From: Geosiphon pyriformis uo1
Lineage: Eukaryota; Fungi; Glomeromycota
DNA length: 64,000 nt
Assembly (NCBI GenBank): GCA_016748015.1
Contig: JAAOMT010000617.1
Span: 628,635 to 692,634, forward strand
Direction: 5' to 3'
A program made the translations under genes and the position numbers. The notes under the pieces are model-generated. The model searched no databases. It saw nothing but the letters and a program-made list of their open reading frames with translations, and had not been told where the DNA came from. Below are positions 13,315 through 58,269 of the stretch, piece by piece (the stretch's first letter is position 1; each line of letters begins with the position of its first letter).

Positions 13315-14076
<762 letters not shown>

Positions 14077-17894: not shown

Positions 17895-17925
17895 GTCTAT
17901 TATGTCTTTATATTCTTTTAGTTGT

Positions 17926-25862: not shown

Positions 25863-25903
25863 GTCAATTGAAGATACCTCTGTTTTGGGAGTGATGCATT
25901 TAT

Positions 25904-27212: not shown

Positions 27213-27270
27213 GTTTGGTTGTAAGAAAATTACTAATAATTAGGTTGGTTTGGTTTGGAAGATTGTACTG

Positions 27271-31501: not shown

Positions 31502-31531
31502 ACAATGAAAAAATAAGTGAATTTTGACAAA

Positions 31532-31547
31532 CTCACAGGGAGCACCA
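31532..31547 (-). promoter_or_regulatory. Primer-binding site TGGTGCTCCCTGTGAG of A2
   Basis: 6 nt downstream of the 5' LTR; complementary to a tRNA 3' end CUCACAGGGAGCACCA; same sequence in B2. Confidence 0.85.
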
Positions 31548-32245
31548 CTTTTATATTATGGGTTGAAGTAACAAGCTAACAGATAACAAGAGAGAACAGG
31601 ATTGTAGGGTAATAAAAGGAATCAAAGGGAATTCAATTTCAAAGAGCAAATTGAATGAGTATGGATTCAATGTGCAAGATCAGTCTCATAAAATATCTCA
31701 GTTACTATACTTTTCAAGAATAACTGGAGAATCTAAAGGTAGAGAGATAGTTTGTACTGTCAACAAATGATCATGCTTGGTACAATTTTATGCTTCACAT
31801 CAGCACTCTTAAAATTCTATATCAGGTATCAGATGTACTCTTCAGTCATATTTTATTCAATAATCTTCAAATGTTACAATTACACATTTCAGGAAAAGAT
31901 TAAAGAATAACCAACAAGTAATCTTTTATTTTTAAGATGTTCAGATACTTAAAAGTAGGGAAAGAGAAATTAGCAATAAGAGAGAGATTGAGATGAAAGT
32001 TGTTATTTTATTTATTTAATTTCTTTGATTTCTTCATTAATATTTTTCTACAGCTAAGAAACTCATCACTTATATATCTATTGAAAGTAGTCAATAACCA
32101 AGTCAATGATCAGGTCAATGGTCAGGTCATTAATTAGATTAATAATCACTATTTAAAAATAGGGTGGCTAATTATATAACATTAGTGGCTAATACATGTG
32201 ATAACTAATAAAAACTATGAGTTTCAACCATAACAGTATGATTAG

Positions 32246-32320
32246 CAGTTATTGAAGTGGTTATTGAAGTGGTTATTGAAGTGGTTATTATTGAGGTGGT
32301 ATTTGTGGTTATTGAATTGG
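32246..32320 (-). repeat. 12-bp tandem repeat (CAATAACCACTT) in the B1 gag Q/P-rich linker
   Basis: GTGGTTATTGAA x3-5 on the + strand; reads Q*PL, ancestral QQPL. Confidence 0.8.
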
Positions 32321-35049
32321 TTTGACAATTGGTTTAATTGATGGCTAATTAATTATGTTTATCAGGGGTAAGTGTTTTTGATTAATTATGTTGGAGTTGG
32401 AATTGTTCTGATTTTCTTAAGTTTGAATATTTGGGGTTTGATTTTTTAGGGTTTTTGTGATTGGATTTTGTTTATTAATTTCTTGATTACTGTCTTCTTC
32501 TTCCTCAGAGTTGGTTATTTTTCAGAGACTAGTGGTTCTAAAATCTGGTTGTGGTAGTGATAATCAAATTTCTGATGGCATTGAAGATTGCAATTTAAAT
32601 CTCTCAAAATAATTGCTGTATGTTTCTAATAACTCTGCTTTTTTTTGTTTACTTTGAAACAGAATTCTGTTCAGTGGCATTGTCATACTTGCTATAGCCA
32701 CACTTATTATATTGATAGTACTTTTGGGTATGTGGTGATATGATGGATTAGCAAATAAATCAAATCTTTGTTTCTTCCAAGTGGATAGTTGGATTTGCTT
32801 TGGTGTTTTGGCTGGTGTTTGTAACCTTCCTTTTTCTTTGTCAACAAAAGTGATAAAAAATCTCTGTTTGGTGTATTTTTCAATTTTCCTGTTTATTTTT
32901 GTAATTAAGAGTGCAAATAAGTAGTTTTGTAAAAGGGTGGTACTTTGGAATAGTTCATTAAAGAAATTGTTGAAGGTGAATTCTGGATTTTCTTGGCCTC
33001 TCAAATAATATACTATTCTCTCATTAACATAACAGTTGAAAGCTGATTTTGTTGGCCAACTATTATTTGTTAATCCAAGATAAATATAATAATGTTAGAA
33101 TAAGAATTTTGCAAATTCCAAATGGTTTGTTCTTGTTTTTTCGGATTCTGTTACTGTTTTGGATAAGTGTTATTGGTGCTGGTTCTCTGTTAGATTATAC
33201 TTTACAGAGAACACCAAATGTTACAGGTGCTTATTTGGGATCTCAAATCAAATAACAAACCTGTAATATGGTGCTCAATAACTGATTTCATTGATAATAT
33301 CTGAAGATTGTTTATATCTGAAGGTTTTGGTTGAGTCTTTTGTATAATAGACAAAGATTCACTTATTGTTTTATCCATAACTTTTCAGAACCACAATTCT
33401 ATCAAATTTTTTTCTCAGCATGATGACTGGTAATTCTTCTGGTAAGCTATCTTTAATTGGGTATTCTACCCTTATTTTTGGGTCTTTTACCAGTTACTTA
33501 TATCCTAATGTTAGTACTTTTGGGTGTTAATTTTTTTAATCAAGTTAGTAACCCAAATAAACAAAAACAGAAAATCAAATAAAGAAAAATAAAAAAAGAA
33601 AATAAAAGGAAAGAAAGAAATAAGCCAAGACAATGAATGTTAGTATCTCATCAATAGTCATAATCAAAAGCTATTGTTCTAGCATGATTAAGTATTTACT
33701 ACTATTAACATAAAATGTTAATAACAGAGAATAAACTAAAATAGTGAATAATTATTTATTGATATTTTTGAATGGAAAGATTGCTTAGATTAAATATAAA
33801 CTAAGAAGTCTGTCTTTTTTACTTCTAATATTATTGCTATATATACATAATTAAGATTTCTCAATTTTTTAATTCTTTATACCAGGAATCTTGAAATTCC
33901 TGGAATTTTGCAATTTCTTTGAAAAAAATCCTGGAATTCTGGAATTCTGCAATTTCTCATATAAAAATTCTGAAATTTCTGGAATTCTGCAATTCCTCTA
34001 GAAGAAATTCTGGAATTTCATATTTATTATATCTACCTCTGATTGGCTAATTTATATACTAATATTTTTTCTATATTCTATAAATAACAATGTCTTAATT
34101 TGGCAATTTTTAAAATCAATAATAAATATTATTGTGCTTTTCAATTGTTTTTTTATTTAATAAATTATAAGAACAAATAATTATTTCTTAGACTAATTTT
34201 AACAATACAAATCAAGAAAAAAAAATAAGGTATATAAATACCAACAAATAATCTTTTATTTTAAGATGTTCAAATACTTAAAAATAGAAAAAGATAAATA
34301 AGTGATATAAAAAAAAGTAATTAATAATAGATTTTATTTTATTACTTTAATTATGTTTTTTTATAATTAAAAAACTTATTACTTATATAGCTATTAAAAG
34401 TGGTTAATAATCAGGTTAGCAACTAGATTAATAATTAGATTATTGATTAGATTAATAATTAAATCAATAATTAGATTAATAATTAGGTTAATAATCAAAT
34501 TATTAATTAAGTTAATAATTATTATTTAAAAATAAAATAATTAATTATATAAAATCAATAGCTAATATATATAATAACTAATAAAAACTATGAGTTTTAA
34601 TTATAATATTATTTTTTCTAAAGAGATTAAGCTCCAGTAAAATCAAGATATTTTATTTGAAAGTTTTTATTTAACTTGAAACTAACTAATTTAGTGAAAT
34701 TTTTTATAGATAAAATATATAATACTTAGAATTTTTATCTGTATTTTAGAAGTTGTTTTTTTATGAATTTTATATTTTCTATGATTTTACCAAATTGACT
34801 ATAGAGTTTTAATTGTTTTTTATATAACAAATTTTTGTTTATAAACAAGATTTTTTTAATTTTATTTTAAGTATATTAGAAAGTAATAATATTGTTACAG
34901 GTTGGAGTAACAAGCTAATAGATAGCAAGGGAGAACAGGATTGTAGGATAATAAAAATAATCAAAAAGAATTCAACTTCAAAGAGTAAATTAAATAAGTA
35001 TGGTGTTACTCATAGAATATAGGAAACATAGTATTATTAGTCAGTAAAT

Positions 35050-35265
35050 ATTAGCCAATCAGATGTAAATGTAGTAAATGTGGAATTCCAAGATTCCCCT
35101 CAGAGAAATTGCAAGATTCCAGGAATTTCAGGATTCTCCAATAAGGAATTGCAGGATTCCAAAATTCCAGGATTCCTCTCATCAGGAATTACAGGATTCC
35201 AGAAATTCCAGAATTCCTGTCACAAGGAATTGAAGAATTGAGAAATCTCAAATATGTATATATAG
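35050..35265 (+). promoter_or_regulatory. B-family LTR U3 promoter: CCAAT box, GGAATT/GGATTCC repeat array, TATA-like TATATATAG
   Basis: AGCCAATCAG at ~35053, ~37-bp units GGAATTGCAGGATTCCAGGAATTCCAGGATTCC x3-4, TATATATAG at ~35257; present in all four B LTRs. Confidence 0.6.
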
Positions 35266-35541
35266 CAGTAGCATTAGAAGCAAAAAAGAGAGAATCAACA
35301 CCAAGAATTCTTAGCTTAGTTATTACAATTCTCAAATAAATAATTATTCATTATATCAAATTTATTCTCCACTATCAACACTTCATGTTGATGATAACTG
35401 ATACTTAACCATACTGGAACAATAGCTCTTGATTATGGCTATTGACAGGATACTAACTTACAAATTGCCTTGGCTTATTTCTTATTTTCTCTTTTATCTT
35501 TCTTTATTTTCTTTGTTGTCTACTAACTTGATTAAAGAATT

Positions 35542-35700
35542 TACTCTTGGAGAACTTATGGAGAAATAAAGCTTACTAAAAATACTTACTCTTGGAGAAC
35601 TTACAAAGGAATAAAACTTACTAAAAATACTTACTCTTGGAGGACTTATGGAGGAATAAACTTGCTTAAACAACACTTACTTTTGGAGAACTTATGGAGG
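35542..35700 (+). repeat. 39-bp tandem repeat in the B2 LTR (also 55150-55310)
   Basis: TACTCTTGGAGAACTTATGGAGGAATAAAGCTTACTAAAAA-like unit x4; absent from the B1 LTRs. Confidence 0.85.
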
Positions 35701-35975
35701 AACTGACATTAGGAAACCACACTGGTATACACTTATGGAGGATATTGTACCAGGAAAATCATCAACTATCAAGCTGAGCAAGCAATTGGCAAAACTATGG
35801 TGCCAGGAAACTACTAATAAATTGTTATCATTGAATCTCTGTCCATTATACAAAAAACTCAATTGGAAAACCTTTAGATAAAATACCTTCAGATTATCAT
35901 CATCATTGATCGCCTTGAGCACTAAGTTATGGGTTTGTTATTCACTCGACACCCCAAAGAATCACCTGTAACATT

Positions 35976-36032: not shown

Positions 36033-39000
36033 GTGGCAGAATCAGAAAATATAGGAGCAAACCATTTAGGATTCACGAAATCCTTGTTTCAACAATACAG
36101 TCAACAATTAGGATTAAACAGTAATCATTACCCAGCCGAATCAGTCTTCAACTATTACATCAATGATAAAATCACAGACTGTTTAGAAGAAATAGTTAAT
36201 ATCAAGTCAGCAAGAAAAAATTTCTATATGGAATTATTTCAACACACCAGCTTACCAAGAAATCACAGTTTTGTCCCAATCATCAGGGAAATTAATCAAA
36301 CCATTGAAAGATACATGCAACAACAATTTCCCATTACCTACGCAGACAAAGATAAAGGAAGAATACAAGCACCAGCAGCAACACCAAAAGGAATACAGTT
36401 ACCTAGTTGGAAAAAACACAGAGTAGAATCACCAACTGCTCCATCATATCACTACATACCGAGAAGCACCATCCACATTTCATCAGCAGACGTGTTTATC
36501 TCAAATGCGACATCAACATTTAGAAGATTTCAGTTCCAAAGCAAACAATAGAAAGAAGACTTACTAGGACCATACAGAGTGTATTTTGAAGGATTTAAAT
36601 CATGATCTCCAATACCATCAGGAATTCGATTACCAATATCCCAACCAGATTTTGGAGCTGCTACTCCATAGAAATTATCAGAGGAAGAAAAGGAAGAAAG
36701 TGAGGATCAAAGATTCATCTACCAAAACCTGATCTCAGAAAACTCGGAATTTGAAACCCTGAATTTTCAAACCCCAATAAACCCAAATTTAGAAAATCTG
36801 GAAAATGCAACTCTGAATATTCAAACACCACAAAACCCCAAACAAATTAATCAGAATAACTTACTTTCGAATATCATCATCAATCAACCATCAATTGATC
36901 CAATAGCCAAACTTATACACCAACTCATCCAACAGCCGTATCAACCAAATCAACTGCCCTTTCAGCAATCTGCTCAACAGCTGTTTTTACTACCACCACA
37001 ACAACTTCAACAACCTGTGTAGCAACAAATGGCATATGCATCTATAGCCAAACTTGAAAAATTCACTGGCAATGAAGACAATACACAAACATGGATAAAC
37101 GATGTCGCCAAAGCAATCGTCGCCAATAATTGGGACAATGCTAGAGCCCTTTAAGCGATCCCCTATTTTCTTCAGGATATTGCAGATGCATGGTATCAGA
37201 GTTTAGTCACCCCACCACAGACATTTCAGCAGTTCAAAACCGAGTTTCTAAGATATTTCAGCAATAATAATAGCATCAACAAATTAGCCAACATCTTCAA
37301 TATCATCAAACAAGGAGACACTGAAGCAGTCACTACTTACTTGGGACGCTTCCATAAAAATCTGCATTAGATTCAGGCCATTGAAGCTAACTACTTCACA
37401 GCACCACAAATTTTAAATCAGTTTATTAGAGAATTACACAGCAGTATCCTCCAATGAGTACACCCAATGCACCCAGCTAACCTACCAACTGCAGTTACAC
37501 ACACTAGAGATTTTGAAGCCGCAGAACTTGAGACTAACCACGTCCAAGCCATCAACCTAGTGATAAATGGATCATCTGAATTGGATTCCAAATTGAAACA
37601 ATTCAGTGATTCAATTAATCAGAAATTGGAAGGATACTTAGCTGACAATTGTGCAATTTATTAACCACTTCAATGACACAGCAATCCAGGAAACTACAAT
37701 CATTTTCAAAATCAAGCATGTCTCTCAACATCGGCCAATCAGCAGTGGCAGCCAGAGATGCGTGTCTGTCACAACTGTGGTAAACAAGGGCACATTAAAG
37801 CAAACTGCAACACTTATAACCATCCATAATCGGGAAATCAATATAGAAACCCCAATCATTAATTTCAAACTCCGAGATATCAACAAAATCAGGAACAATA
37901 TCAACCCGCTTACCTGCCAGTGATGCAGCCAATGTATCAAACACCTACACCAGTATATCAAACCCCAATTTATCAACCGCAGCCGCAAGTAATATATCAG
38001 CCGCAGCCACAAATCATCTATCAATCCCAACCAATTCAAACACTGCCCCAGAACCCAGCTCAAATAACATTAGGCAACCCTCAATCCAGAGTTACTCAAA
38101 ACTGGAGATTGGTGATGGTTGTTTACCAACTGGTCCCCAATTTATTAAACCCACAATCAGGATCATGCCCACAGAATTTGGATACTGGTCATGCCCAAAA
38201 CCCAAATTCCCAACACTATTTAAGTCTCCTGGTTACTCCAGAAGATGCCACATCCAACAAACTGAAATCCAATCAGCAATTACTTACCAACACAATTCCA
38301 CCAACAACCATCTCCAATGACAAATTTCTAGCAGCTATCTTTTCTTTTGAACTCAAAGAAACCACACCAATACTATTATTTAGTAGAGCCACCTTTGAAG
38401 AAAAACCCATCACAGTGATATACACAGATGCCAGAGTTGATGGTTATCCCATCAAACTCATCTTAGATAGTGGATCAGCTGGCAGCATTATCACAAGACA
38501 GCTCATGGATCAATTAGGTTGCCAAGTTGATCAAGCTGCCAGCGCCAGAATCATCACAGCCGATGGAGCAACCAAAACTCCAATCAGCAAAATCAATGAC
38601 ATCATGACTCCCATTAAAGTTTTAGTGATAGAAGCCACTCAATACCAAACTCTTATTAGTAATGACTGGCTATTCAAAGTCAATGCGATGTTAGACTGGA
38701 ACACCCAGGAACTCCAGCTAACATATCAGAGCCAATACATACATGTACCAGCCATGTGTGGCCACTTTAAGACTCTTCCAAGAGAGAAACTATTGATCAA
38801 ACTGGAGAAGGCAAAAGAGAAACCTACTTGGGAAGCTTACCAAGTCTCTCGGGCCAATGCTAACCACAATGAACTACCACCCATACTATCATGGGACGAC
38901 AAAGAGAAGAAGAACTTACTTGAAGAACAAATCAGGAATCTTGGAATGATGACAGCCAAAGCAAACCAACCACAGAATGGACTTGGAAAGAGAAAGAAAA

Positions 39001-42000
39001 AGGGAAAAAACAAGAAGAAAAGCCAGCACAATCTACTACCCCTACATATGTCCTATATTCTACACAACTTCAGGCCACCTACTGTTGACTTAAACTCAAA
39101 TGCGTCACTTGCGGCAAGAAATTGTCAACAATGGGCACATGTTGTGGCAATAACAAAAACTGGTAGACAGCAACACAATATTATTGTCACCCATGTGTCA
39201 TTGAATGTGATGGCTGACCACTAAAAATAAAAAAATGGGACAATACATCATGTCTAGCATGCAAAGAAATGCTTTTGGACGAAAGAATGTAAAATGACAT
39301 TCTAGAGCGAGAAGGAACATGCGATGAAACATGCCAGTACACAATCCTAATAAACAATTGGATACAAAAAGAGACCTCAATTGACAACACATGGAAATGA
39401 GCCTTAAGACATTTGGAAGGCTACTCACATGATGAACATAAGATCTGAAGAATGGCATATGCAATGGCAGAAGGAACTACAGCCAGCGAGTTGCGAGAAA
39501 TTAAAACCAATTTGTTATCTCTCCCAAAGCCAGAATATGTTGCAACGTTCGACGTTTTTGGCAACATTGAGGATGATCCCAAGAAATTTCACAAACACTA
39601 CTAACAACTAGCACTCACAAAAGAAGAACAAAAAGAGCAGTTAATACAGCTAAACACTCGATTATGTGATCACTGTTTGATCTCATGTGACTTTCAATAT
39701 TGTAATGAGTGTGATTTTATTTACAATCCACCAATCTGCATGATCTACATGATCCCAGAGGAAGAGGAACCAATTAGCAGCTGCGCATTGGAATCAGGAT
39801 TGTTGTTCGATCCCGATTCAAACTCCAACAATGATGACAACAAAAACACCAGTTCCAGCTCCATTTAATATGGCAACAACAACGATACTGATTCCAACTC
39901 AGATTCAAACTCCAATACAAAATACGAACAATATATTGCAATCTCTGACCTCACCAGGGAATTAGAACTAAAATGGTTTAGTAATAATGATAAGAGTATC
40001 ATACCTGAACGTGTGCATGATACTGATGCCAGGTTTGATCTAAGGTATCCAGGAAAAAAGGCCATCAAATTGGAACCACATTCACACACCTGCATTGATC
40101 TGAAAGTAGCACTAGAAATTCTGGCAACAACAATGGTTCAATTAGCATTTAGGAGTAGTTTAGCAAAAAGAGAGATTAATATAAGAGGAGGAATAATTGA
40201 CACAGGATATGTAGAAAATATCATCACTATGCTACAAAATGACTCAAAAAAGGCCTATATAATAGAGCCCAACAAAAAAGATAGCACAAGCAATATTCTT
40301 GTCTCTGGTTAGAATAGCTCAGTTAGTATCAGTGGGAAAAAGGGAGGAATTAGGAATAACAGCAAGAGGAATACAGGGATTTGGATCAACAGGTAGAATA
40401 GATGTGCCAGTCAATATAGCAGAAGAAAAAATTGTTGGCCAAGGAGAAATTATCTCAACCGGTCAAGCAATTTCTATTCCACCATATGACCAGTACATAA
40501 TAGGGATAAAATAAAAAGTAAAAGAACAGAATCAGATTTTTGAAGTAGAACCAACCCTTTGTGAATTAGGAGAGATTGGACTCATCAATCTCCACATACC
40601 AGCCAAAGATTACAGTCACATCAAAATTCCCATCTACAATAACACAGAAAATGTTATAGTAATACCAGTCAAAACCACCATTGGATACTTAAACACTGAA
40701 ATAGCAGATCAACTACCAAGCACCATTTCAGACTTTCCACAGCTTTGTAGATATATTGATATCACATCACAAACAATATATAGATGAAACAAATGTTATT
40801 TGCTCCAACCAGAACAATTGGAACAAATGAACATAGGAAACTTAGATCCACTCCAATGTATGCAGCTCAAGATGTTGCTCAACAATTTCAATGACATCTT
40901 TGCCAGTGAAAATGAATTTGGCCAAACTGACATCATCCAGCATCAGATCAAGACTGGAGATGCAATACCAATTAAACAAAGAGCATACAGAGTGCCACCA
41001 GCCAGCCATGAGATTATTCATCAAGAGATAAACCAAATGCTTGACAATGGGCTAATTCAGCCATCAATGAGCCCATGGTCATCACCAATGATACTCATCC
41101 ATAAGAAAAATAGAAAGATCCGATTTTGTGTGGACTACAGGAAACTCAATAGTGTAACTCATGGAGACAGCTATCTAACTCCATAGATACAGGAATTATT
41201 CAATGCTTTTGGTGAGAACAAATGATTTTCAACATTAGGCTTGAACAGTGGTTACTGGCAAGTAGCCATGGATTCAGCTGACAAAGAGAAGACAGCATTC
41301 ACCACAAGAGAAGAGAATTTCAAATTTGAAGTAATACCATTTGGCTTAACCAATACTCCAGCCATTTTCCAATGGCTAATGGAAATTGTTTATACTGGCT
41401 TACTGTAGAAATCAATAATTGTATACTTGGATAACACTAATGTATTCTCAAAAACATTTGATGATCATCTTCATTATCTTCAACAAGTGTTCGAAAGACT
41501 AAGAAAAGCAGGACTAAAGTTAAACGCAACAAAATGTTTTTTTGGCAAGACAGAACTAAAATTCTTGAGACATATAGTTAGCAAAGATGGCATCAAAATG
41601 AATCCAGAGAAAATAGAGATAGTAAAGAACTTTCCAGTACTGACCAATATGACAGAACTGAAATCATTCTTGAGATTTGCCAGCTACTATTGACGTTTTA
41701 TCAAGAACTTTTCCAAGATAGCGCAGCCACTCAACCAACTGCAAACCAAGAATACAAAATATAAATGGACAGAAAGTCAACAAGAAGCTTTTGATATTTT
41801 GAAAAGAAAGCTTATTTAAGCTCCAGTACTGATTTATCCAGATTACAGCAAATCATTTATTATCACCACTGATGCATCCAGCCAAGCATTGGGAGCAGTA
41901 CTATCTTAGAGAAGACCAGACAATAGAGAACATCCAGTAGCATATGCCAGCAGAGATTTAACACCAGCTGAAAAGAACTATGGAACACCAGAACAAGAAC

Positions 42001-42227
42001 ACTTAGCAATATACTGGGCAGTCATGAAATGGAAAGAATACTTAAGCCAGAAGTTTGAAATATACACAGATCACAAAGAACTAACATTACTTCAAAAACA
42101 AAAATTTGGAGATGAAAGACAGTCAAGATGGAAAATGGCACTTGCACTATATAATTATACTATACATTATAAAAAGAGAAAAGACAACAGAAATGCTGAC
42201 AGTTTGTCGTGAATAAAACAAATTTAA
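36033..42227 (+). pseudogene. B2 ORF1 Gag-PR-Cys-rich domain-dUTPase-RT-RNase H
   Basis: MAYASIAKLEKFTG gag, CHNCGKQGHIKANC, LILDSGSAGS, dUTPase 40010-40400, RT RFCVDYRKLN/YLDN, RH TDAS; ends SRIKQI*. Confidence 0.9.
40010..40400 (+). pseudogene. dUTPase domain of B2 pol
   Basis: HDTDARFDLRYP, RSSLAKR, GGIIDTGY, KIAQAIFL, RGIQGFGSTG. Confidence 0.9.
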
Positions 42228-44059
42228 GAATATTTCAACCCAAAAATATAACAAAACCAGAACAATACCAACGAAAAATATAACAAAAGATGAACATACA
42301 AAAATATCAACAACTGCAACATTATATAAACACTCAATAGTTCAAGGAGAATTTATCTCAAACAGAATGAAAGAGTATCAAACAACAATCAAAATATTTT
42401 ATCACTCACCAAAATATACTTTATCAGAAAAATAGAAGAGATCTAGAGCAACCAACCAGAGTAATTACAGAGCCAGAAAAAGAGACAATATTATTCAACA
42501 TGCACTCAAATCCAACAGCAGGACACTTTCACAAAGAAGCAACCATGGAAAGAATCAGAAAAAGATACTATTGGCCATCAATGTATTCAGACATCATCCA
42601 ATATGTTCAAAATTGTGATGCTTGTCAGTAAAAAGGAGATATGAAACCCAGTGAACCATTAAAACCAATCAAAGTGAGACAACCATTCAATTGTATTGGA
42701 ATTGATTTAGTTGGACCATTAACAATCACTGGTGAAAGAAACAGGTACATAGCAGTAGCCATGGACTATCTCACTAAATGGCCAGAGGCAAAAGCAATTC
42801 AAAGAACAGATGCAGAATCCATTGCCAAATTCATTTATCAAGATTTAATTTGTTGACATGGATGTCCAAAAGAATTATTATCAGACCAAGGAACTCATTT
42901 TGTGAACAGAACATTAACAGAATTAAGCCAAAGATTCAGAATTAAGAGACCACTATTATCACCATATTATCTACAAACCAACAGATTAGTTAAAAGATTC
43001 AACAGAACATTGTGTGAAGCAATAGCTAAACTCAGCCAAAAAAACCAAAATGATTGGAATTTGTTGATACCATCAGTACTATTTGCTTATCGGACAATGA
43101 AGCAAGATACTACACAAGCAACACCATTTAAATTAGTATATGATAGAACAGCAACACAACCAGTGGAAATAAAAGTCAGCACATACCCAACCAAACCAAT
43201 AACAGAAGAAAATTTCAAAAACACATTGTTGAAAAGAACATATGACCTAATGGAAACATTAGAAAACAAACAACAAAGAGCAGCTGATAACATACAAAAG
43301 TTACAAAAGAAACAAAAAGAAAGACATTGTTACTGGAGGTTTTTGGTCTCTTTTCTGTAATGTTGTTAATACCTGTTTGCTATGAATTCACGTTTTCTGG
43401 ATGTGATTGAACCTCCAGTAACTGAATTTTCTCTTCAAATTATCTTCTATAATTTGAACTGCTGGGTTTATAAGTGGAATGGCCAATTCCTTGCCAGTTA
43501 CTTTATGTAGTTACATTGTAGTAAATGTCAACTCTTTCCCAGGAATTGCTTGTCTAGAAGCTCACTAAAAATGTGTAGTTACTTTGCTGTGAAAGTCAAC
43601 TCTTCTACAGGAATCTTGTCTGTAGACTACCCTAATAATTGTAATAAGAAAAGAAAAGAAAAATAAAAGAAATGTAAAAGAAATAAGATTTTATCAAGGG
43701 AAACGTTTTCTATTCAGGCCTGGAGTCCCTAACAGTTTACTAAAATTGGTAGCTAATCAATTTCAAAATGTTAGTTGGGTTTTGGGGATTTTTCAAGTGC
43801 AATAATTAAAGAATTTGGTTTTTTGAATTATTTGATATTTATTTCTTTCTGTGTGTGTAAGAATGATTCTAAATAATAAATCTAAAGTAAGATACATTTT
43901 TTTGAAGAGAAAAGCTCTTCTTTTATACAACTTGTTGTAGTACTAGTCTATAAACTTGCACTTTTTCTTTTTGCTCAAATTTTAGTGAACTAAAGATACA
44001 TTTTGATGAACTACAAGTTATTTCACTGAACTATTGATTAATTTGGGTGAACTATTTAT

Positions 44060-44116
44060 AATTTCGGCGAATTTCTTATAAATTTCGGCGAATTTCTGTA
44101 AATTTCGGCGAATTTT
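44060..44116. repeat. ~20-bp LTR tandem repeat AATTTCGGCGAATTTCTGTA (x3 here, x2 at 53330-53366)
   Basis: Seen directly; degenerate copies lie adjacent. Confidence 0.85.
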
Positions 44117-44300
44117 TGAATATTACAAAGTTCAGGATATTGTGTAATTTGATCATCCTACTTTCTGTTATACTAATTAGATTATTTTAATTGAATCATG
44201 ATATGTGATAATTGATTAAATAATAAATAATAATTTGAAATAATATTAATATACTAATTAATTATAGGAATTATAAGGGTAATTTCATGCTAATTAATAG

Positions 44301-45008
44301 CTAAAATTCTACTGGTAACATAATCTCCTCCTCAAGACTGAGTTCCATCAAAGTCCAAGCACTATCCATAATATTGAGATAGTGATCCAAAATAATTGAA
44401 GTAATCTGATCTGAAAATTGTTGAAATTTCAGTTCTGTGAGTTTGCCAATGTATTGAACTTTCATTGGTTGTAGTATTGGATTTTGTAGAATATTTTCAC
44501 AAGTGTTAAACAAATCATAGAGTCTAAAAGCTGCTCTAAGTTTGTAGCAAATGTTTGTTGGTCCAGCTGCTGTTTTAAATTCATTGTGGATTTGTTTTTG
44601 TATAGCTTCAGGAGTGAGATTTGTTGCTTCAAGTTTCAATTTTCATTCATAAAGTGTCTTTCCAATGTGAAAGTATTTATAGATAGGGGTGTGTTCATTG
44701 TTCTGTTCATTGAGAAGTAGTAGAAGTTTTTGTTGTATTGTAGCATTTGGTGGAATGTCAATAGGGGCAATTAAAAGATTTTCTTCTAGTGCTTGCTTCA
44801 AAAGTCTTGATAACTTATTTTCAGAGTGACTTCTTGTTTTTCTTTTATAGGGATGATAGTTCTGTGAATGATTTGCTACTGGGGCTGTGGTTTTTTTCTG
44901 AATGTAATTAATTTGACTTCTATTAATTGTTATGAATAAGTCAGGAAGTGTTTTTAAGGCTAACATTAACTTTTGGGATATTTGTTGAATATTTCGGAGA
45001 ATAATCAT
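44301..45008 (-). pseudogene. Family C ORF3 (~235 aa, one internal stop), reads into the LTR
   Basis: ORFs 44643-45008 and 44301-44639 are in one frame; YKYFHIGK, AAFRLYDLF, IGKLTELKFQQF. Confidence 0.8.
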
Positions 45009-45154
45009 GATAAAATTGACTAATTATGAAAAAAGAAAATAAGAAAAATTATTTTTGGAATATGGGGTTTTTATTTGTTTTTGGGTTTGGGTGTTTTTTG
45101 TAATTTATTTACTATTTTTGTCTTTGTGTTTTTATTGGAGAATTATTGTAAAAT

Positions 45155-46540
45155 TTAAGTGTTCAAGTTTGGTTGTTGTTTTATTATAATTATTGGTTCT
45201 AAATTTCGAGGAATATCTTCAGGATTAATTAAAGGGGAATGTGTACCAATTTGTGGAATTAATGGTTCAGGATTGTTTCTGGAATAATAGTGTTTTAATC
45301 TGTCTTCATGTGCAACTTTTGCTAGTATTTTGTTATCAAGTCTTAACTTGTATGATCCATTGCCTAAAATTTCGTGAATATAAAATGGTTCATCCCATTT
45401 GTTTTCAAATTTCCCACTTCATTGTTTTTCAGTCTTAGTTCTGTGTAAGAGAACTTTATTTCTAACTTTAAATTCATTGGTAATAAGTGGTAATTTGTTG
45501 TTATGTCTTTCTTTTTGTTGAGCTTGGGAATGTTTAATATGAGTTGCTGCTATTCTTTTTTTTCCTTCCAGTGTACTAAGAAGAGTGTAGGCTCTTTTTT
45601 GGAGTGTTTCTTGAAAGTTTTCTTCATTGATTGGTTGCACTGGGTATGTTTCTACTGTAAAATTAATTGGTAATGTTGCTGTCCTTCCATAAGTAAGATC
45701 AAATGGTGTGTGTTTTATAGTATCTTGTTTTAGTGTTCTGTATGCTAGTAACACTGATGGAATAAAGATATCTCATTTCTGCTCAAAGTCTGTTGAGACT
45801 TTGGCTAGAGATTTACACAATGTTTTGTTGAAACGTTCTACAAGTCCATTTGTTTGAGGGTAATAAGATGATAATAGAGATCTTTTGACATTAAACCATT
45901 CACAAATTTCTTGTATCAAGTTGTTCACAAAATGTGTTCCTTAATCAGATAAAAGTTCAATTGGGCATTTATGTCTACAGATAATGTCTTCATAGATGAA
46001 ATTTGCTACTGATTTTGCATCTGCTCTTTGGATGGCTCTAGCTTCAAGCCATTTGGTAAAATAATCTACTGCAACTGCAATATAACAATTTTCTTGGGTT
46101 GTGATAGATAATGGTCTGACTAAATCAATTCCAACTCTATTAAAAGGTTGTCCAACTTTGATTGGATTTAAAGGTTCTGTGGGGCGAGTTCCTCTTCTTC
46201 TTTGACAACTATCACAAGATTCTACATATTGTCAAATGTCTTTTTGCATGTGAGGCCAAAAATAATGTTCAAAAGTTCTTTGAATTGTTTCATCTCTTCC
46301 CAAGTGTGCTGAAGAAAGATCTGTGTGCATGTTGTATAAAATTGTTTCTTTTTTATTTTCCTGTACTAATCTGAGTGGTTGGTCTGGATTTTTACAATTT
46401 TTGTAATATATTTTGTTATGGTGTATAAAATATTGTTTGGATTGATGTTGTAATCAATTTTTTTTACTTGGAGACCAATTTTCCGGTATAGTGAGAGTCT
46501 TCAAATAGTTTTTGATGTTGTTGTAGTTTTCTGGATCCAT
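45155..46540 (-). pseudogene. C1 integrase, stand-alone ORF
   Basis: ATG 46540 (MDPENY), CDSC, VGIDLV, DYFTKW, YPQTNGLVERFN, C-terminal RNLEPIIII. Confidence 0.88.
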
Positions 46541-46608
46541 TGTTGGTGATTTTGTTGTTTTGTTCTGCTGTTAAGTTTGTTGGTATTTTGTTGGTATTGA
46601 TGTTGGTA

Positions 46609-49600
46609 TTAATATTGTCTCATTCTTGAGAGGCTATTAACATTGGTGTGTAGTTTTCCTGGTTTGTAATGTACAATGTATCTGTAGTCTGCTAGGAAAT
46701 CATTCCATTGAGACTGTTTGGCACTTTGTTTAGTTTTCTTTTTATTAAGCCATTTGAGGCCAATATTGTCAGTTATTATGTCAAATTCTTTTCTATTCTT
46801 CAGGTATTGTTGAAAGTGTTTGAGAGTCCAGATGACTGCAGTGGCTTTCAGTTCAGTTGAGCCATATTTGAGTTCTGTTGACTTGAGTGTTTTGCTGGCA
46901 TAGGCAATAACTTGTTCCTGGCCATTTTCATCCAATTGTGATAAAATGGCACCAAATGCTATGTGTGAAGCATCAGTGGCTAATTGAAATTGTTTGTTAA
47001 AGTCTGGGTAAGCAAGAACTGGAGCTATTGTTAATTTTCTTTTGAGAGTTTCAAAAGCTTTTTGTTGTTTTTCAGTTCATTTGTATGGTACGTTTTTGTT
47101 GGTAAGATAATTGAGTGGTTTAGCAATTTCTGAGAATTCTTTTATGAATTTTCGATAGTAAGAGGCTAATCCTACAAATCCTTTTAGTTCTGTAGTATTT
47201 TTGGGAGTTTGAAAGTTTTTGACAGCACTGATTGTTTCTGGATTTGGTTTGACTCCATCTTTACTAACTATGTGTCCAAGAAAGATCAAGCTTGTTTTTC
47301 CAAAGTGACATTTCTCAATGTTTAACTTTAATCCTGCTTTCCATAATCGTTGAAAAACTTCTTGCAGGTGAATAAAATGAGTCTCAAAGCTTGGCAAGTA
47401 TACATTAGTGTTATCAAAATAGACAACTACTGATTGCCACAAAAGTCCTTCATATACAACATTCATGAGTCACTGGAATGTTGCTAATACATTGCAGAGT
47501 CCAAAAGGCATAACATTAAACTCATAGTTTCCTCTCTGGGTAGTAAATGCTGTTTTGGGTCGGTTTTTTGGGTCCATTTAGACTTGCCAGTATTCACTTT
47601 TCAAGTTTAAAGTTGAGAAGAACTTGGCTTTTCCTAGAGCATCTAGCATGTCATCAATTCTTGGAAGAGGGTAGGCATTTCCAATTATAACACTATTCAG
47701 TTGTTTATAATCAACACAGAATCTGATTTTCCCATTTTTCTTTTTAACTAAAACTACTGATGAGGCCCAAGAACTTCTTGATGGTTGAATCAATCCGTTA
47801 TTGAGCATTTTTTGGACCTCTTCTCTGATGAATTGGTGGCTGGCAGGTGGCACTCGATAAGCTTGTTGATGTTTTGGTGAAGCATCTCCTATATGGATCT
47901 GATGTTGAACAATATCCATTTTTCCCAAGTCATTGTTGTCTTTTGCAAATATATCTGCAAATTCAGCTATCAATTGTTTCAATTGTCTTTGTTGTTGAGG
48001 TTTTAAGAGACCCATGTTGATTTGAGAGAGTTTTTTTTCTAAAAAGTGGTAGTTTTCAGTAGTAGAAATGATATTTGGATTTGGAAGTAGAGTATATCTT
48101 ACAATTTCGATGAAATTAGAGACAATTTGAGAGTTTTCATCTTGAAAAATATTGCTGTGTATGATTCCAATCTCTAGTTTGTTTAATAAGACAATAGGGT
48201 AATTATTGGGATTGTAGAATGTAACTCAAATTTTTTTCATTCCTTTGAGAATATAAACGTTTGGAATTGAGATTTTATGCTTCAAACAGATTTGTTTATT
48301 GGATTCAAAGATTTATTGTGTAGTGGTGGGTTTTGAGCAAGTGTAAATTTCGTGATATTCTCCAAAAAGTGAAATGGTAATTGGCTGGGGAAGTTGAAGA
48401 ATCTGGTGAGATTCATTTTGTGTATTAAGAGCTATGTTTACTGAAACTGTAAATTGTCCAGTTGAACCAAAACCTTGAATTCTTCTTTCACTTTTTTCCA
48501 ATTGTTCTCTGTTGTTTACTGATTGTAAACCCGAAATGTTGATTAAGGATAAGTAGATTGCTTGAGCAATTTTTTTAGCATGTTTAATTTTGAATGGTTT
48601 GTCTGTCTCATTCTGCAACATGATGATAATATCTCCAGTGTATCCTGCATCTATAACTTCTCCTCTAATATTGATTTTTTTGCTTACCAATGATGATTTG
48701 GAGGCAATTTGAACCATTACTCCTGGTGGAATTTCAAGAGCAATTTTGAGATTGATTTTTGTCAAAGACTTTGGTTGGAGAACCAAAGTATCTTTTCCTG
48801 GGTATCTTAAGTCATATTCAGCATCAATTTCGTGTGCTTTTTTTGGTCTGATTCTTTGGCCATGGTTGTCAAAATATTTAAGTTGTAGAGGTGGTTGCTT
48901 TTTAAGAAGATAGATGGGGGTGGTTGGTAGTTCTTCTCTTAGTTTAGCTACTCCAAATTCGATTTCATTTTCATCATTCTTATCTGGTAGAGGAATGCTA
49001 AGAGCATAACATTCTAAACACCATTGGTCATCACAAGACATAATACATTCTTCACATAATTAAATGTTTATTTGTTCTAATCGTTGAATTTGAGCTTCTT
49101 TGGTCAGATATGTGTGGCTTGCAATTTGGTGGTAGGTTTTTACTTCATCTTCATAATCAAATCCAGCTAATTCCATGGTATACTCAATATATTCAGCTTC
49201 TTTCATTTGGCGGACATCTTCTTGGGTGGCTCTATTGATCAATGCCATTGCTAGATCAAAAATCATTTTAGCATCATGAGAGTAGTGGTAAAGTTTATTG
49301 AAAGCACTGTTGTATGCTGCATCAAATGGTGTTCCTCTTCTGACTTTTTCTGAAATTGATAGAGCATATTGACAGGTTTGATCACATACTCCTCCTCTCA
49401 TTGCTANNNNNNNNNNNNNNNNNNNNATATGTGTGGCTTGCAATTTGGTGGTAGGTTTTTACTTCATCTTCATAATCAAATCCAGCTAATTCCATGGTAT
49501 ACTCAATATATTCAGCTTCTTTCATTTGGCGGACATCTTCTTGGGTGGCTCTATTGATCAATGCCATTGCTAGATCAAAAATCATTTTAGCATCATGAGA

Positions 49601-52552
49601 GTAGTGGTAAAGTTTATTGAAAGCACTGTTGTATGCTGCATCAAATGGTGTTCCTCTTCTGACTTTTTCTGAAATTGATAGAGCATATTGACAGGTTTGA
49701 TCACATACTCCTCCTCTCATTGCTACATCAATTCAATTGCATTCTTCTGGTAGCATTTTTCCACATGTAAGGCAAGGAGTTTTGTCTCATTTTCCACTTC
49801 TCTTTGGAGATCCAAATCATTCTCTATGGCACACTTTGCAAAAGTAACAAGTACAAGTTTCGTATTTCTCTTCTGGGGAAATACAGGCTCCTATAGATGA
49901 AAGCTTTTTTTTGCAATCTTTGCATTTTAGTGGAATGTATGGTGGTTTTTTTCATGGTTCTGGTGTGGAATATCTAACTTTCTTCTATCCTCTTGATTCT
50001 TCAAAAATCTCTTGTTCTGTTTCCTCAGCCCAATTGGATGGTGATCCAAAAGCCATGTAGGTTTCAGTGAGTGGTATTTCTTTTTCTTCTTCAAATTTAA
50101 ATACTGGAGCTTTTTCTGATTGTTTGTTAAAGATACCACAGGTTGCAGGTACAATGATATATTGTCCTTGGTATGAGATTTTAAGTTTTTAAGTTTCCCA
50201 GTTCAGGTTTGCATTGGCCTTGAGAAGCCAATCATTTCCAATTAGAGCTTGATATTGGAGTGCATCCATAACAAAAACTTTAACTGGAATGGTGATTTCA
50301 TTAATTGTAAAGGGGAAATCATCAATTTCTTCCACTGAAGTCTTCTTCATACCATCAGCTGTAACAATAACTGTTTGAACTGGTCTATCTATGTTTCGTT
50401 TAAGTTGTTGTATCAGCTGGTAAGTGATGATACTTCCAGCCAATCCACTATCTAAGATTAAGCAAATGGGTTTTCCTTCCACTATAGCTTCTGTATACAT
50501 AGCAGTAATTGCTTTCTGTTCATTAATTGCTGTATTACTAAGCAGAAATGGTGATTCATTTGCTTCAAATTCAAATGGAAATATATCTGACAGATTGGCA
50601 TTTTGGGTAATTTGAGCTGGTGGAATGGTGTGGTTGGAAGGGTTTAATCTTGGTGCCACAACTTTACCTTCAGAAAGTGCAGTTTGTTGAAAATCCGATT
50701 CCTCTGGTATTGTAAGATAACTGGGTTGATTGTGATAGTGATTGGGTCTTTGCTGACCAGAATTTCGGGGAACCAACTGGTTATTTAGATTGATTCTGTT
50801 GTGGTTACTCTGCAATTGATTTTGGAGTGTGAATTGGTTATGTTGAACCAATCTTCTTGCTGGTACTTGATATTGTTGAGTGGGTGGTATTTGATATGGC
50901 TGAATTAGTAAAGGTTGCTGATATTGTTGCTGCATTGGTTGTGGAGCTGGTGAATAGTAACTGTTTTGATTTTGTGGTCTTGGTGAATAATAAGTTGGTG
51001 GTAAAGATTGGTAATAGGATTGTTGTGGTGAAGAGTAACGTTGATTACTCCTGTTTTGTTGGTCTCTTTGTAATTTTCTACAATCTCATTTCCAGTGTCC
51101 TGGAATTCCACAATAATGACAATTTTGAGGTTGGTTGTTGGATGGTGATCCAAAATTGTTTTAGTTGTGGCATTGTGGGGGTTGATATCTTTGTGGTTGT
51201 TGTTGCTGTTGTTGTTGGTTTGTGAAGTAGCTTTCAATTTTTTTTGTGAGTTGGTCTATTTTCTCTTCAGCTGCTGAGCTGGTTTCTCCAATTGCAAGGT
51301 TTACAAGCTTGGTGTGATTTGCTTCTTCCATTGCCATTTCATAGCTTTTTACATGTCTAATAGCAGTTGCTAAATCTGTTGGAACATGTGGATGGACTTT
51401 CTTAATCAGTTTGTCTTTTAACCCTGCTATAAACTGATCCAGAATTTGAGCATCAGAATAGTAGTCATTGGTTTCCAATTGTCAGATTCGTCTGAGAAGT
51501 TTGTTATATCTTTTAAGATAGATTATAACAGTTTCAGATGTTTCTTGTTTGATATTGTGAAAGTGGTTTCTGAGAGTGATAGAGATATTGTTGTTAGTGA
51601 ATTGTTGTAGAAAAGCATCTTTGAATGCTTGCCAGTTTTCAAATGGTTCTTCTAAATTTTCAAACCATTCTTCTGCTGTTCCTTGGAGAAAGTAGGAAAT
51701 TGCTTTAAGCATTCTTGCTGCAATCCAACTATTTGTATCTTCTGCTTTTTGAACTTTGTTAAGCTATTCTTGAGGACTGGTATCATTGTCTTCACCAGTG
51801 AATTCTGGGATTTTTGCAATGTAAGCAGTTGCCATTTTTTCTTTGTTTTCTGTAATTTCTTCTGATTCTGATTCAGTTTCTTTACTTTTCAAGCTTTCTG
51901 AATGATTACTTTTGTTTTTCTGTAAGTAATCAATGATATTGGCACTTGTTGATATTGGTTCTTGCTGTTAAGTAGGGTTTCTAGGTGACTGAAAATCTTC
52001 TGGTCTGGAGAAACAGTTGAGTGGTAAATTTGGTGTTTGTGGTTGAACAAGTGAAATTGGAAATGGTGTAATAGAAATTGGTAATTTGACACTGGTTCCT
52101 TGTTCAGGTGTTCACAAGTGTTTGGCAGTTGTCTTTTGTAGTGTTGGAGTGTTTGGAGTGGTTTTTGAGTATTGCTTCAATCTTTGTTTGCCTTTGTTGC
52201 TTGTTTTTGTCTCTGATTCAAAGTCAAAAGAGTATTTAGACTGTACTGAGTATTTTTCTTCACAATATTCAATAATGTTAAAATTAAGTTCTTGGAAGTA
52301 GATAGCAAATGTTTTACTGTTTAGATCTTCTGTTCCCAATTGTGAATAGTGCACTAAATTATTGTAGAGGTTGCTTCTAACTTCTGAAATGTTGTAGTTT
52401 TCAAAAAGATAATTGTTGATGCAGTTTTCAATGTATTGGTATACTAATTTCTTTACAACTTCAATTCCATCTGGAATGTTGAATCTTTGCTTGCAGTGGG
52501 TGTAAATTGACTGGTAATACTCTAGAGTTGCTGTGTCTGGTGTGGTCACCAC
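46609..52552 (-). pseudogene. C1 ORF1 Gag-PR-Cys-rich domain-dUTPase-RT-RNase H, one reading frame
   Basis: All ORF-track fragments share one frame after removing the 319-nt gap artefact; dUTPase ~48460-48850 (YDLRYP, GEVIDAGYTG, KIAQAI, GFGSTG). Confidence 0.9.
49108..49725. other. Scaffold gap (20 N, 49407-49426) flanked by an identical 299-bp duplication
   Basis: 49108-49406 equals 49427-49725. Confidence 0.9.
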
Positions 52553-53971
52553 TTTGAATTTGTTGTTGCTGTGTTATTTCCATGGGAGAGCACCAAATGT
52601 TACTAGAAGTTTTTGGTCTCTTTTCTGTAATGTTGTTGATATCTGTTTGCTGTGAATTCATGTTTTCTGGATGTGGTTGAACCTCCAGTAACTGAATTTT
52701 TTCTTCAAATTATCTCCTATAATTTGAACTGCTGGGCTTATAAGTGGAATGGCCAATTCCTTGCCAATTACTTTATGTAGTTACGTTGTAGTAAACGTCA
52801 ACTCTTTCCCAGGAATTGCTCATCTGAAAGCTCACTAAAAATGTGTAGTTATTTTGCTGTGAAAGTCAACTCTTCTACAAGAATCTTGTCTGTAGACTAC
52901 CCTAATAATTGTAATAAGAAAAGAAAAGAAAAATAAAAGAAATGTAAAAGAAATAAGGTTTTATCAAGAGAAACATTTTCTATCCAGGCCTGGAGTTCCT
53001 AACAGTTTACTGAAATTGGTAGCTAATCAATTTCGAAATGTTAGTTGGGTTTTGGGGATTTTCCAAGTACAATAATTAAAGAATTTGGTTTTTTAAATTA
53101 TTTGATATTTATTTCTTTCTGTGTGTGTAGGAATGGTTCTAAGTAATAAATCTAAAGTAAGATATATTTTCTTGAAGAGAAAAGCTCTTCTTTTATACAA
53201 TTTGTTGTAGTACTAGTCTATAAACTTGCACTTTTTCTTTTTGCTCAAATTTCAGCAAATTAAAGATACATTTTGATGAACTACAAGTTATTTTGCTGAA
53301 CTATTGATTAATTTGGGTAAAGTATTCATAATTTCGGCGAATTTCTGTAAATTTCGGCGAATTTTTGAATGTTACAAAGTTCAGGATATTGTGTAATTTG
53401 ATCATCCTACTTTCTGTTATACTAATTAGATTATTTTAATTGAATTGTGATATGTAATAATTGATTAAATAATAAATAATAATTTGAAATGATATTAATA
53501 TACTAATTAATTATAGGAATTATAAGGGTAATTTTATGCTAATTAATAGCTAAAATTCTACTGGTAACAACATGATAACCAACTACCAGATAAACCAGTT
53601 GAATTCAAGATTGGAGACAAAGTACTACTACATTGTACCAAAGCAGAAAAACAATAGAATGGAAAATTTGACCCCAAATAGGACAGACCATTTCACATAG
53701 AAAAAAATTTAGGAAATAAAGCTTACAAATTAAGATTGAATAACAAAATCTTGACCAAAGCAGCATATAGAGATCGACTGAAACTATACCACCATATAGC
53801 ATTATCATCCACCAGTAATATTCCACAATTAGGAGTACAGAGAATACTAGTCCAACCAGATGAGATTCCATGAAATCTAGAACCAATCATTATCATTGAC
53901 AACAACACGTCCAATTGATTGACAAAAGAATATATAAGAACATAATCAACGCAACAAAAGAGATCAGAAAG

Positions 53972-54600
53972 ATGGAAATTATGGACAATATCCATTCACT
54001 AGCCCAACAAATTTTTCAATTAATCCAACACCAGGAGATGGAAATTACAATCAATTAACAAATCATTTGTTACAAAAATATGACAAAAATACCACAAAAC
54101 AAAGCACAGAAAAGACTTGAAAATGTCATTGACAAAATCATTACAAAAGTAAAATTGGCAATAAAAAAATTGACAAAAGAGTCAATATACCAAGAATTAA
54201 CAAAAGAAACTTGGAATTGGTGGATACAACAATTTCCAAAAAACTATTGTTATTTTTACTTGGAACAACATGTGAATATTCAGACTTATATACGGATAAA
54301 ACAAAGCAGTTATTTAACACAACAATACTACAACAACTAGAACATTTTGTGGGGAAAAACAACTTATCCACACAAGCTCAAGCTATATACCAAATACACA
54401 CAGCATTTCAGGATCAACCAAAAATCCTACTCAACAAAGCAATGGAAATGGTTACCAGTAATTAATTGAGAAAAATCACCAATGCTCAATTTGAAAAATT
54501 ACAGACTCAAATAACACAAGTAGTTCTCGAAAACAAAATTCAGGAAATACTTTAAGAGGGAGAATTAAAGGAATTAAATTTCGATAGAGCTCAATATTAA
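53972..54600 (+). pseudogene. Family B ORF3 (B2 copy, one frameshift)
   Basis: MEIMDNIHSLAQQIFQLI...YCYFYL...QAIYQIHTAFQDQP...LRKITNAQFEKL...FDRAQY*; stop lies directly before the PPT. Confidence 0.78.
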
Positions 54601-56193: not shown

Positions 56194-56850
56194 TTAATAA
56201 GAAGTATAAGTTTCAAGCATAACATTATCCTCTCCAAAGAAATTGAGCTCCAGCAAAATCAACTTATTTATAATATAATCTATTTGAAGGGTTTTATCTA
56301 ACTCAAAGCTAACTAGTTTGTTGAAGTCTTTTGTAAATAAAGTATATAACACTTGAGACAAAATAAGTTTTGTATTCAAAAGATCAAATCTTTGTATTAG
56401 AGTTTTGGCTTTTCTAGTAATAGTTAAAACTCTTAAGACATTTAACCATATAATGTCCAAAATTTCTGCCTGTATCTTTGAAGTTGTTTTTTTTATAAGT
56501 TTCATATCTTTTATGATTTCATTAAGGTGACCATAGAGTTTTAATTGCCTTCCATATGACAAGTTTTTGTCTATAAGTAAGATTTCTTAGAGTGTTTTTC
56601 CAATTGTGTTGGAAGGTAGGAGTATAGCTGCTGTTATACTTTCTAATAGATATTTATCTATTTTACTACCAATTTTTTCTCTTCTAATAGTAGTTTTCTT
56701 TGGTCTAATAACAGTATGTGTTCTATTGTTATCAGTTATGGTGGTTTGTTTTCCAATGGTCAAAGTAGCATTTAGATAGTTTTTGATCCAATACTTATGG
56801 AGAGTATAGAAAGTGTTTTGAATGTTTTGATCCAAAAAATAATTGTTCAT
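56194..56850 (-). pseudogene. Family A ORF3 (A3 copy)
   Basis: Fragments 56587-56850 and 56194-56562 are in one frame. Confidence 0.8.
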
Positions 56851-56891
56851 GTCAATTGAAGATACCTCTGTTTTGGGAATGGTACATTTAT

Positions 56892-58205: not shown

Positions 58206-58269
58206 TATCGTGTTTGTTTGTGAAAGAGTTACTAATAATTAAGTTGATTTGGTTTGAGAAGTTGTACTA

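Follow-up and report, generated by a model that had tools for sequence, protein, structure and literature searches.

Integrase is encoded as a separate gene in a lineage of Gypsy-type LTR retrotransposons

Introduction

In Ty3/Gypsy elements and retroviruses, the Gag-Pol fusion both doses and packages integrase. A lineage without this fusion must make and load its integrase in some other way. The fungal pol gene is described as encoding one polyprotein with integrase last (accessible sections of PMC3248453).

Junctions between consecutive ORFs on one RNA are known from several other systems. SART1 has a UAAUG junction. LINE-1 has a 63-nt inter-ORF spacer, across which reinitiation has been proposed, and influenza B restarts translation 63 nt downstream (accessible sections of PMC5972666). 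Both the LINE-1 and the SART1 junction types occur in the lineage described here; their break separates ORF1 from a whole enzyme ORF, whereas ours falls inside pol, between RNase H and integrase. Coupled termination-reinitiation is used by the hypovirus CHV1 (UAAUG), the victorivirus HvV190S (AUGA plus a pseudoknot) and the caliciviruses (TURBS). Relatives of our elements share with these viruses the UAAUG, AUGA and AUGnnUGA junctions and a low-abundance enzyme downstream, but the elements at our own locus have spacers of 62-68 nt and no overlaps, and the host of the junction is a retrotransposon. Caulimoviruses are not known to encode an integrase. Like our elements they are reverse-transcribing, with tightly spaced long ORFs and a last ORF of their own, and they employ TAV-driven reinitiation (accessible sections of PMC5972666).

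A stand-alone Gypsy-type integrase is also what Ginger1/GIN1 has in common with the present elements. Ginger1 was placed near Athila/Tat without a supported sister (accessible sections of PMC2836005). The lineage with a split integrase offers a concrete, testable route by which Ginger1 could have come from Gypsy integrases. No LTR retrotransposon whose integrase forms a separate cistron was found in the titles and abstract openings that we searched, a scope that left Repbase, GyDB and most subscription journals outside; integrase is not mentioned in the accessible sections of PMC11952901.

Results

Five nested elements of Gypsy type

The window, by which we mean the whole 64,000-nucleotide stretch of DNA that was analysed, holds five LTR elements of three families (A2 and A3; B1 and B2; C1). 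Their parts are as follows.

35004..35973, forward strand: 5' LTR of B2 (TGTTA...TAACA), followed by the primer-binding site TGGTGCTCCC
37025..42227, forward strand: decayed ORF1 of B2 (Gag, protease, dUTPase, RT, RNase H), 5' limit approximate
39986-40406, forward strand: dUTPase of B2, between protease and RT
42290..43327, forward strand: 5' part of the B2 integrase ORF, with its own ATG, broken at 43328 by C1
53570..53918, forward strand: 3' part of the B2 integrase ORF, beyond the C1 insertion, stop read by eye
54614..55583, forward strand: 3' LTR of B2, polypurine tract directly upstream
43328..53569, reverse strand: C1, whole element; LTRs 52598-53569 and 43328-44320, 92.9% alike; ACAT target duplication
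48864-48445, reverse strand: dUTPase of C1, between protease and RT
16361..34089, reverse strand: B1; LTRs 33221-34089 and 16361-17229, 85.8% alike; ATGT target duplication
21608-21190, reverse strand: dUTPase of B1, between protease and RT
24495..32239, reverse strand: A2, inserted in B1
55584..63220, reverse strand: A3; 3' LTR split by B2, second piece at about 34887-35003

Each of the five elements is bounded by paired LTRs with TG...CA ends and carries a primer-binding site of the form TGGTG(C/T)T(C/T)(C/T)C behind the 5' LTR and a purine run ahead of the 3' LTR. Target duplications of 4 bp were readable for C1, B1 and B2 (ATGG in B2, whose LTRs are 92.6% alike). Protease, RT and RNase H were matched by domain search in the window itself, and the Gag and integrase families were matched on relatives (loci L045 and L055) and on integrase homologs; the matched families (Ty3-capsid, RVT_1, RT_RNaseH, Integrase_H2C2 and rve) give the order Gag-protease-RT-RNase H-integrase. 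The LTR ends, the 4-bp duplication, the primer-binding site, the polypurine tract and the domain order are those of Ty3/Gypsy elements (Metaviridae). The differences are that integrase lies outside pol and that a third conserved ORF stands behind it. Since integrase is not within the pol polyprotein, we file these elements as a Gypsy-type variant and not as canonical members. No chromodomain match was found in the L055 integrase, the one scanned, and the dUTPase seen in C1, B2 and B1 had no match in family A.

The preliminary description of this locus had called the five elements complete. In fact all of the copies are decayed and nested and none is intact: C1 sits in the integrase of B2, B2 sits in the 3' LTR of A3, and B1 is interrupted by A2. 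All five are dead. A Gag-to-RNase H frame without a frameshift, reported earlier, does exist in C1, but in family A a -1 slippery site separates gag from pol (TTTAAAC near 29960 in A2 and a TTTAAAC-type site at 60927 in A3, both on the reverse strand). Transitions and transversions between paired LTRs number 49 and 1 in C1, 73 and 0 in B2 and 120 and 1 in B1, a RIP-like or deaminase-like pattern in what is likely a Glomeromycotina genome. The changes in these three pairs lie mostly at CpA and CpT, not at CpG. Within C1, an exact 299-nt duplication flanking a gap of 20 N (49108-49725) is an assembly artefact. At about 5000-15000 on the reverse strand lie intron-bearing genes that we take to be host genes, resembling an RBX1 RING protein, a CRAL-TRIO lipid-binding protein and a trehalase.

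The junction between RNase H and integrase

In all five elements, ORF1 stops five codons past the RNase H end motif, and integrase follows in an ORF of its own. The junctions lie at the following positions.

27206..27273, reverse strand: A2 junction; TAA 27273-27271, spacer 64 nt, start decayed to ATA at 27206
58205..58272, reverse strand: A3 junction; TGA 58272-58270, spacer 64 nt, ATG 58205
19308..19373, reverse strand: B1 junction; TAA 19373-19371, spacer 62 nt, ATG 19308
42228..42289, forward strand: B2 spacer, 62 nt; stop TAA 42225-42227, ATG 42290
46540..46611, reverse strand: C1 junction; TAA 46611-46609, spacer 68 nt, ATG 46540

The ORF1 stop, the spacer length and the aligned integrase start are in every element where the preliminary description had put them, and two further claims hold as well, namely an integrase-frame TAA inside each of the five spacers and the decay of the A2 start to ATA. 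An in-frame ATG lies two codons upstream of that ATA; its equivalent in A3 is ACG. The spacers consist of 67-87% A+C with two to four G each. That of C1 (87% A+C) is free of ATG, as is that of B2 (79% A+C), in which the integrase-frame TAA is at 42281-42283 and AAAAG abuts the ATG. Judged from their composition, the window spacers look unstructured and A/C-rich. Integrase identity between the families is 35-42% for A and B, 41-42% for A and C and 53-54% for B and C. Three families so far apart in sequence could not credibly share one chance lesion.

The split persists in other copies of the family

One could suppose that mutations broke up a pol gene that was once continuous, because the copies are full of C-to-T and G-to-A changes, which create stops. 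To examine the B2 junction, 1364 contig pieces of a DNA run were aligned to it at 80% likeness, and differences were counted from 8% of depth upward. The run possibly comes from the same source as the window, in which case it samples further copies of the family and not another organism. Neither the B2 stop, nor the integrase-frame TAA, nor the first two letters of the ATG had an alternative letter at 8% of depth or more, and no indel was found at the junction among the 1364 family B pieces. An earlier TGA at 42210 does vary, with C at 42210 in about 32% of depth in other copies: this TGA is decay, and the true ORF1 stop is the TAA at 42225-42227. Moreover, relatives with an open ORF1 of 860-1600 aa and an integrase of 410-440 aa are equally split. 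The comparison of stop, spacer and ATG over many copies and relatives that had been suggested earlier thus found the stop kept in the family B copies and the split in 56 of 56 related loci. On these grounds decay was rejected, and we regard it as extremely improbable. Joints in DNA run X1 occurred in single contigs only and were read as deletions in other copies.

Split and fused forms among relatives

A protein search with the B2 integrase returned 695 proteins of 190-606 aa, and among the 120 stand-alone homologs listed most have the same Met start. Those close homologs that carry a name come from Rhizophagus and Cetraspora, and the lineage, a large one, is likely of Glomeromycotina fungi. 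Rhizophagus irregularis has annotated, intact close relatives (P0035, P0083, P0090). A search for stand-alone proteins is blind to fused forms, and therefore locus DNA was fetched for 81 loci, namely the best 80 of 503 metagenome matches and one viral contig. A profile of stand-alone integrases preferentially retrieves split forms, and related loci do not count as independent samples; with this bias, all 56 loci in which an RNase H end and an integrase ATG are both present are split and none is fused. Fifteen loci had no RNase H end on the contig and were excluded, as were ten in which the integrase 5' end was not resolved, one of which, the distant viral contig L081 (31%), is fused. With a split in five of five window elements and 56 of 56 relatives, and with a conserved Met, integrase is a separate gene that needs its own initiation, as had been proposed, and the relatives' loci bear out a tricistronic order of ORF1, integrase and ORF3. 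We conclude that the split integrase is a real, lineage-wide architecture, a variant of Gypsy-type elements.

Upstream of the junction, a TTTAAAC-type slippery site for a -1 frameshift to pol is seen in L003, L005, L021, L059 and L066 as well as in family A, and other subfamilies have one continuous Gag-to-RNase H frame. ORF1 runs about 190-360 residues beyond RNase H in L031, L034, L041, L043, L045, L047, L067 and L073; this extension had no Pfam match in L045, and a PWW motif lies near its end in several of the eight loci. The contigs L041, L058, L067, L073 and L079 carry integrase, ORF3, a non-coding stretch and then Gag, and are likely repeat copies collapsed through the LTR.

It is also conceivable that an intron spanning the stop, a frameshift or read-through re-creates a conventional fusion of Pol and integrase. 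A search for longer proteins gave 1009 matches, and six of the 120 listed reached at least 44% identity. Five of the six are long Rhizophagus or Cetraspora gene models (44-66% identity), four of which join RT to integrase. In two of the five, P0121 and P0122, the RNase H end motif is passed over, in P0122 by a jump from 5648 to 5714 on L055. Such a join would delete a conserved RNase H residue, so these models look like gene-finder joins; gene finders appear to bridge the junction with false introns in fungal annotations. The sixth, the metagenome protein P0125, has RT, RNase H, integrase and ORF3 in a single frame, and its integrase is nested in the split clade, but its RT-RNase H falls outside the split group, which points to a recombinant or chimera.

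The distances between stop and start also bear on a restored fusion. They range from -11 to +102 nt in 51 of the 56 loci, and the five longer ones (147-827 nt) look damaged. All three frames are used, by 15, 19 and 22 loci, and since 15 of the 56 spacers are multiples of three, the earlier statement that the spacer never is holds within the window and not among relatives. An integrase-frame stop within the spacer blocks any one-step fusion in 38 of the 56. One frameshift would join four loci and one read-through three, and eleven junctions overlap. Given the use of all frames and the second stops, no single frameshift or read-through rule fits, and a conserved mechanism of either kind was rejected. 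A restored fusion would not conserve the integrase Met and its context either. Taken together, we consider it very unlikely.

A third ORF behind integrase

A full integrase is present in 51 loci. In 29 of them it is followed by an ORF of at least 90 aa, and 22 of these ORFs form one family, which we call ORF3. The window candidates are as follows, those of the remaining copies having been assigned by eye.

44391..44705, reverse strand: C1 ORF3, profile-matched part, iE about 1e-3
25559-25311, reverse strand: A2 ORF3 candidate, weak profile match
53972..54600, forward strand: B2 ORF3 candidate, decayed; by eye, limits approximate, profile iE only 2.5

The B2 candidate starts 53 nt past the integrase stop and extends to the polypurine tract. 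A predicted ORF3 model is a confident all-helical bundle (pLDDT 94.8). Five members had no Pfam family. Foldseek matched the model to nothing at E 0.001 in either PDB or BFVD, a wide search gave a best Z of 4.6, Atlas gave no usable match, and no similarity to TAV or any fold was found. These results do not establish a new fold or a function. The fusion of ORF3 to integrase in P0125 suggests that ORF3 may work with the enzyme complex. In L029 (1945-2886) and L038, the third ORF is a NUDIX hydrolase and not a member of the helical family.

Start of integrase translation

Eleven of the 56 junctions have no spacer at all and overlap, by -1 (UAAUG, one locus), -4 (AUGA, five), -8 (three) or -11 (two). 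Together with the tight offsets +2, +2 and +6, this places 14 of the 56 within -11 to +6, spread over at least four branches of the integrase tree; 38 further junctions lie at 24-102 nt. The junction between integrase and ORF3 is similarly tight (-8 to +3) in 7 of 29 loci.

ATG was seen twice across 34 spacers of 20-110 nt (37 minus near-duplicate or damaged loci), compared with 22.7 +/- 3.7 in dinucleotide shuffles, of which none in 300 was as low. CTG, GTG and TTG were not depleted. From 60 to 360 nt upstream of the stop, ATG is plentiful, at about 1.1-2.5 per 60 nt, and in the final 60 nt ahead of the stop it is somewhat lower, at 0.4-1.2 per locus. As ATG is poor in the spacer yet plentiful upstream, any scanning starts near the stop. 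The integrase start has A at -3 in 53 of 71 cases and G at +4 in 60 of 71. Initiation at the integrase AUG by a subunit that searches from near the ORF1 stop is thus a reading well supported by these sequence patterns.

How the subunit gets there is less certain. We favour termination-reinitiation on the full-length RNA, with a probability of roughly 0.5, because overlaps recur at both junctions and acceptor signals are not enriched. A ribosome finishing ORF1 would leave its small subunit on the RNA. In relatives, this subunit could restart on the overlapping AUG; in the window elements, it would slide along an unstructured, A/C-rich stretch of about 60 bases until it meets the first AUG. Reinitiation may give a few percent of integrase per ORF1 product. 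The free integrase would then be packaged in trans, entering the particle via RT, Gag or RNA binding and not within a polyprotein, and ORF3 would likely be produced by the same restart route. UAAUG, AUGA and AUGnnUGA are listed as proven coupled-translation junctions (accessible sections of PMC2699510 and PMC6631646), and the window spacers match that of LINE-1 in length (accessible sections of PMC5972666). Overlaps, short and long spacers and a folded leader ahead of one gene form a natural series in which to study how eukaryotic ribosomes restart after a very long ORF.

Several observations argue against reinitiation. In the subfamilies that reach pol by a -1 frameshift, including family A and the five loci named above, only frameshifted ribosomes would arrive at the stop, and the product of two low rates may leave integrase in short supply. 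For CHV1, moving the start 31 nt further from the stop by an insertion is called detrimental (accessible sections of PMC2699510), and the window spacers are twice as long. No TURBS-like element or pseudoknot was identified. Scanning from the stop would also require the subunit to melt the stable RNA structure that one sub-clade has between stop and AUG. Finally, a spacer poor in AUG would be expected equally of a landing pad or of a short leader on a subgenomic RNA.

The first of these alternatives is that integrase is translated by ordinary scanning on a subgenomic mRNA that begins, or has its splice acceptor, at the ORF1 stop or just past it; such an RNA would be made by an internal start or by splicing from a donor near the 5' LTR. 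This alternative would account for the spacer-limited avoidance of AUG and the strong start context, and frees the integrase supply from the gag-pol frameshift. AAAG abuts the ATG in family B, its G having no other letter at 8% of depth, which leaves splicing conceivable in this family; AAAG also precedes the B2 ORF3 candidate, and two introns of a window host gene end in AAAG (by eye). The preliminary description had named branch and acceptor-like signals in the spacers, and left spliced subgenomic mRNA and reinitiation side by side. As a feature of the lineage these signals are not supported, and reinitiation is the better supported of the two: a YTRAY with a YAG behind it was present in 11 of 59 leaders, where shuffles gave 7.9 +/- 2.5 (30 of 200 as high), AG is absent from the 60 nt before the ATG in 15 of 59 leaders and from the last 40 nt in 22 of 42 spacers, and the three examples given earlier place the putative branch A only 3-7 nt from the AG. 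With patterns at shuffle level and AG often missing, a conserved acceptor in the spacer was rejected. In addition, an AG near the ATG has become GG in L058 with a compensating change on the opposite strand, in the structured sub-clade, and the repeated AUGA and UAAUG overlaps at both junctions would be left unexplained. We therefore rate a subgenomic mRNA as unlikely.

The second alternative is an IRES on the full-length RNA, with the spacer acting as an A-rich landing pad in the five window elements and as a folded element in one sub-clade, which would again uncouple integrase from the frameshift. A candidate for such an element is a motif of about 37 nt that ends 4-14 nt upstream of the integrase ATG in 18 of 81 loci (e.g. 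L047:2596-2632). Fifteen aligned copies (three near-duplicates left out) fit a three-way model of 12 pairs with 180 of 180 cells paired. Five of the 12 pairs changed on both sides, and none of 500 shuffles had a pairing and covariation score as high; since the model was built from the related sequences on which it was scored, such shuffle counts are not probabilities. Sliding the partner drops pairing to 23-51%. RNAalifold prefers a long hairpin with a purine-rich bulge, which has ten pairs in common with the three-way model. The motif is confined to one branch, that with about 190-360 extra ORF1 residues after RNase H. Rfam gave no match at the gathering score for nine loci, with only chance matches on the L047 leader, the model had no match in the window at E up to 5, and the pattern was not found in viral contigs. 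In another sub-clade (the L001-L021 group), the last 45 nt before the ATG hold two or three GAY-W-AC repeats about 13 nt apart (by eye); they show no evident pairing and might be a protein- or ribosome-binding leader, and such repeated words would also suit internal entry. Nevertheless, the folded structure is missing from the window and from most loci, it could equally serve reinitiation or protein binding, and overlapping junctions leave no space for a separate element. Internal entry is accordingly a doubtful reading, and termination-reinitiation is the one we retain.

Trees and the relation to Ginger1/GIN1

Trees were made with FastTree (191 rows) and with quick IQ-TREE runs (LG+G4, SH-aLRT only) on subsets of 73, 45 and 56 rows. 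In the integrase trees, P0125 and the five window copies join the split elements in a single branch (FastTree 0.99 with 191 rows; SH-aLRT 96 with 73 rows), and a tree that keeps P0125 out of this branch comes close to rejection (AU p 0.056). The RT-RNase H of this protein lies outside the split group in the RT tree. From these placements P0125, a single record, is best read as a re-fusion or chimera, possibly with a captured integrase-ORF3 module. The RT tree does not separate the split elements from seven fused relatives (branch support 85). It places the RT among Gypsy-type proteins, in a set of rows without Copia, BEL, retrovirus or caulimovirus.

In the best integrase tree, the sister of the split clade consists of eight fused elements (support 90, and 78 in a smaller tree). 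GIN-like proteins, represented by only five rows that were labelled by source name and domain content, are the next branch, and share a branch with the split clade and the eight fused elements (SH-aLRT 97). Constraining them to group with the split clade costs 1.74 log units and is not rejected (AU p 0.433), a result that does not show such a clade. Ginger1 differs in having terminal inverted repeats, no RT and a Ulp1/OTU tail, whereas the split elements have direct LTRs, RT and Gag; a protease tail had no match on the L055 integrase. A Gmr1 order, with integrase before RT, was rejected, as integrase here follows RNase H and inverted-order proteins lie far off in the tree. One may speculate, although we find it improbable as a whole, that this is a tricistronic LTR lineage in which integrase became an interchangeable module that brings along its start codon and RNA control elements (among them the covarying leader of one branch), with ORF3 as an element-encoded helper, and that it represents the missing step from Gypsy to Ginger1/GIN1. 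Three of the GIN-like proteins begin at the Met register of the split integrases (MD....Y..I..Y....YP).
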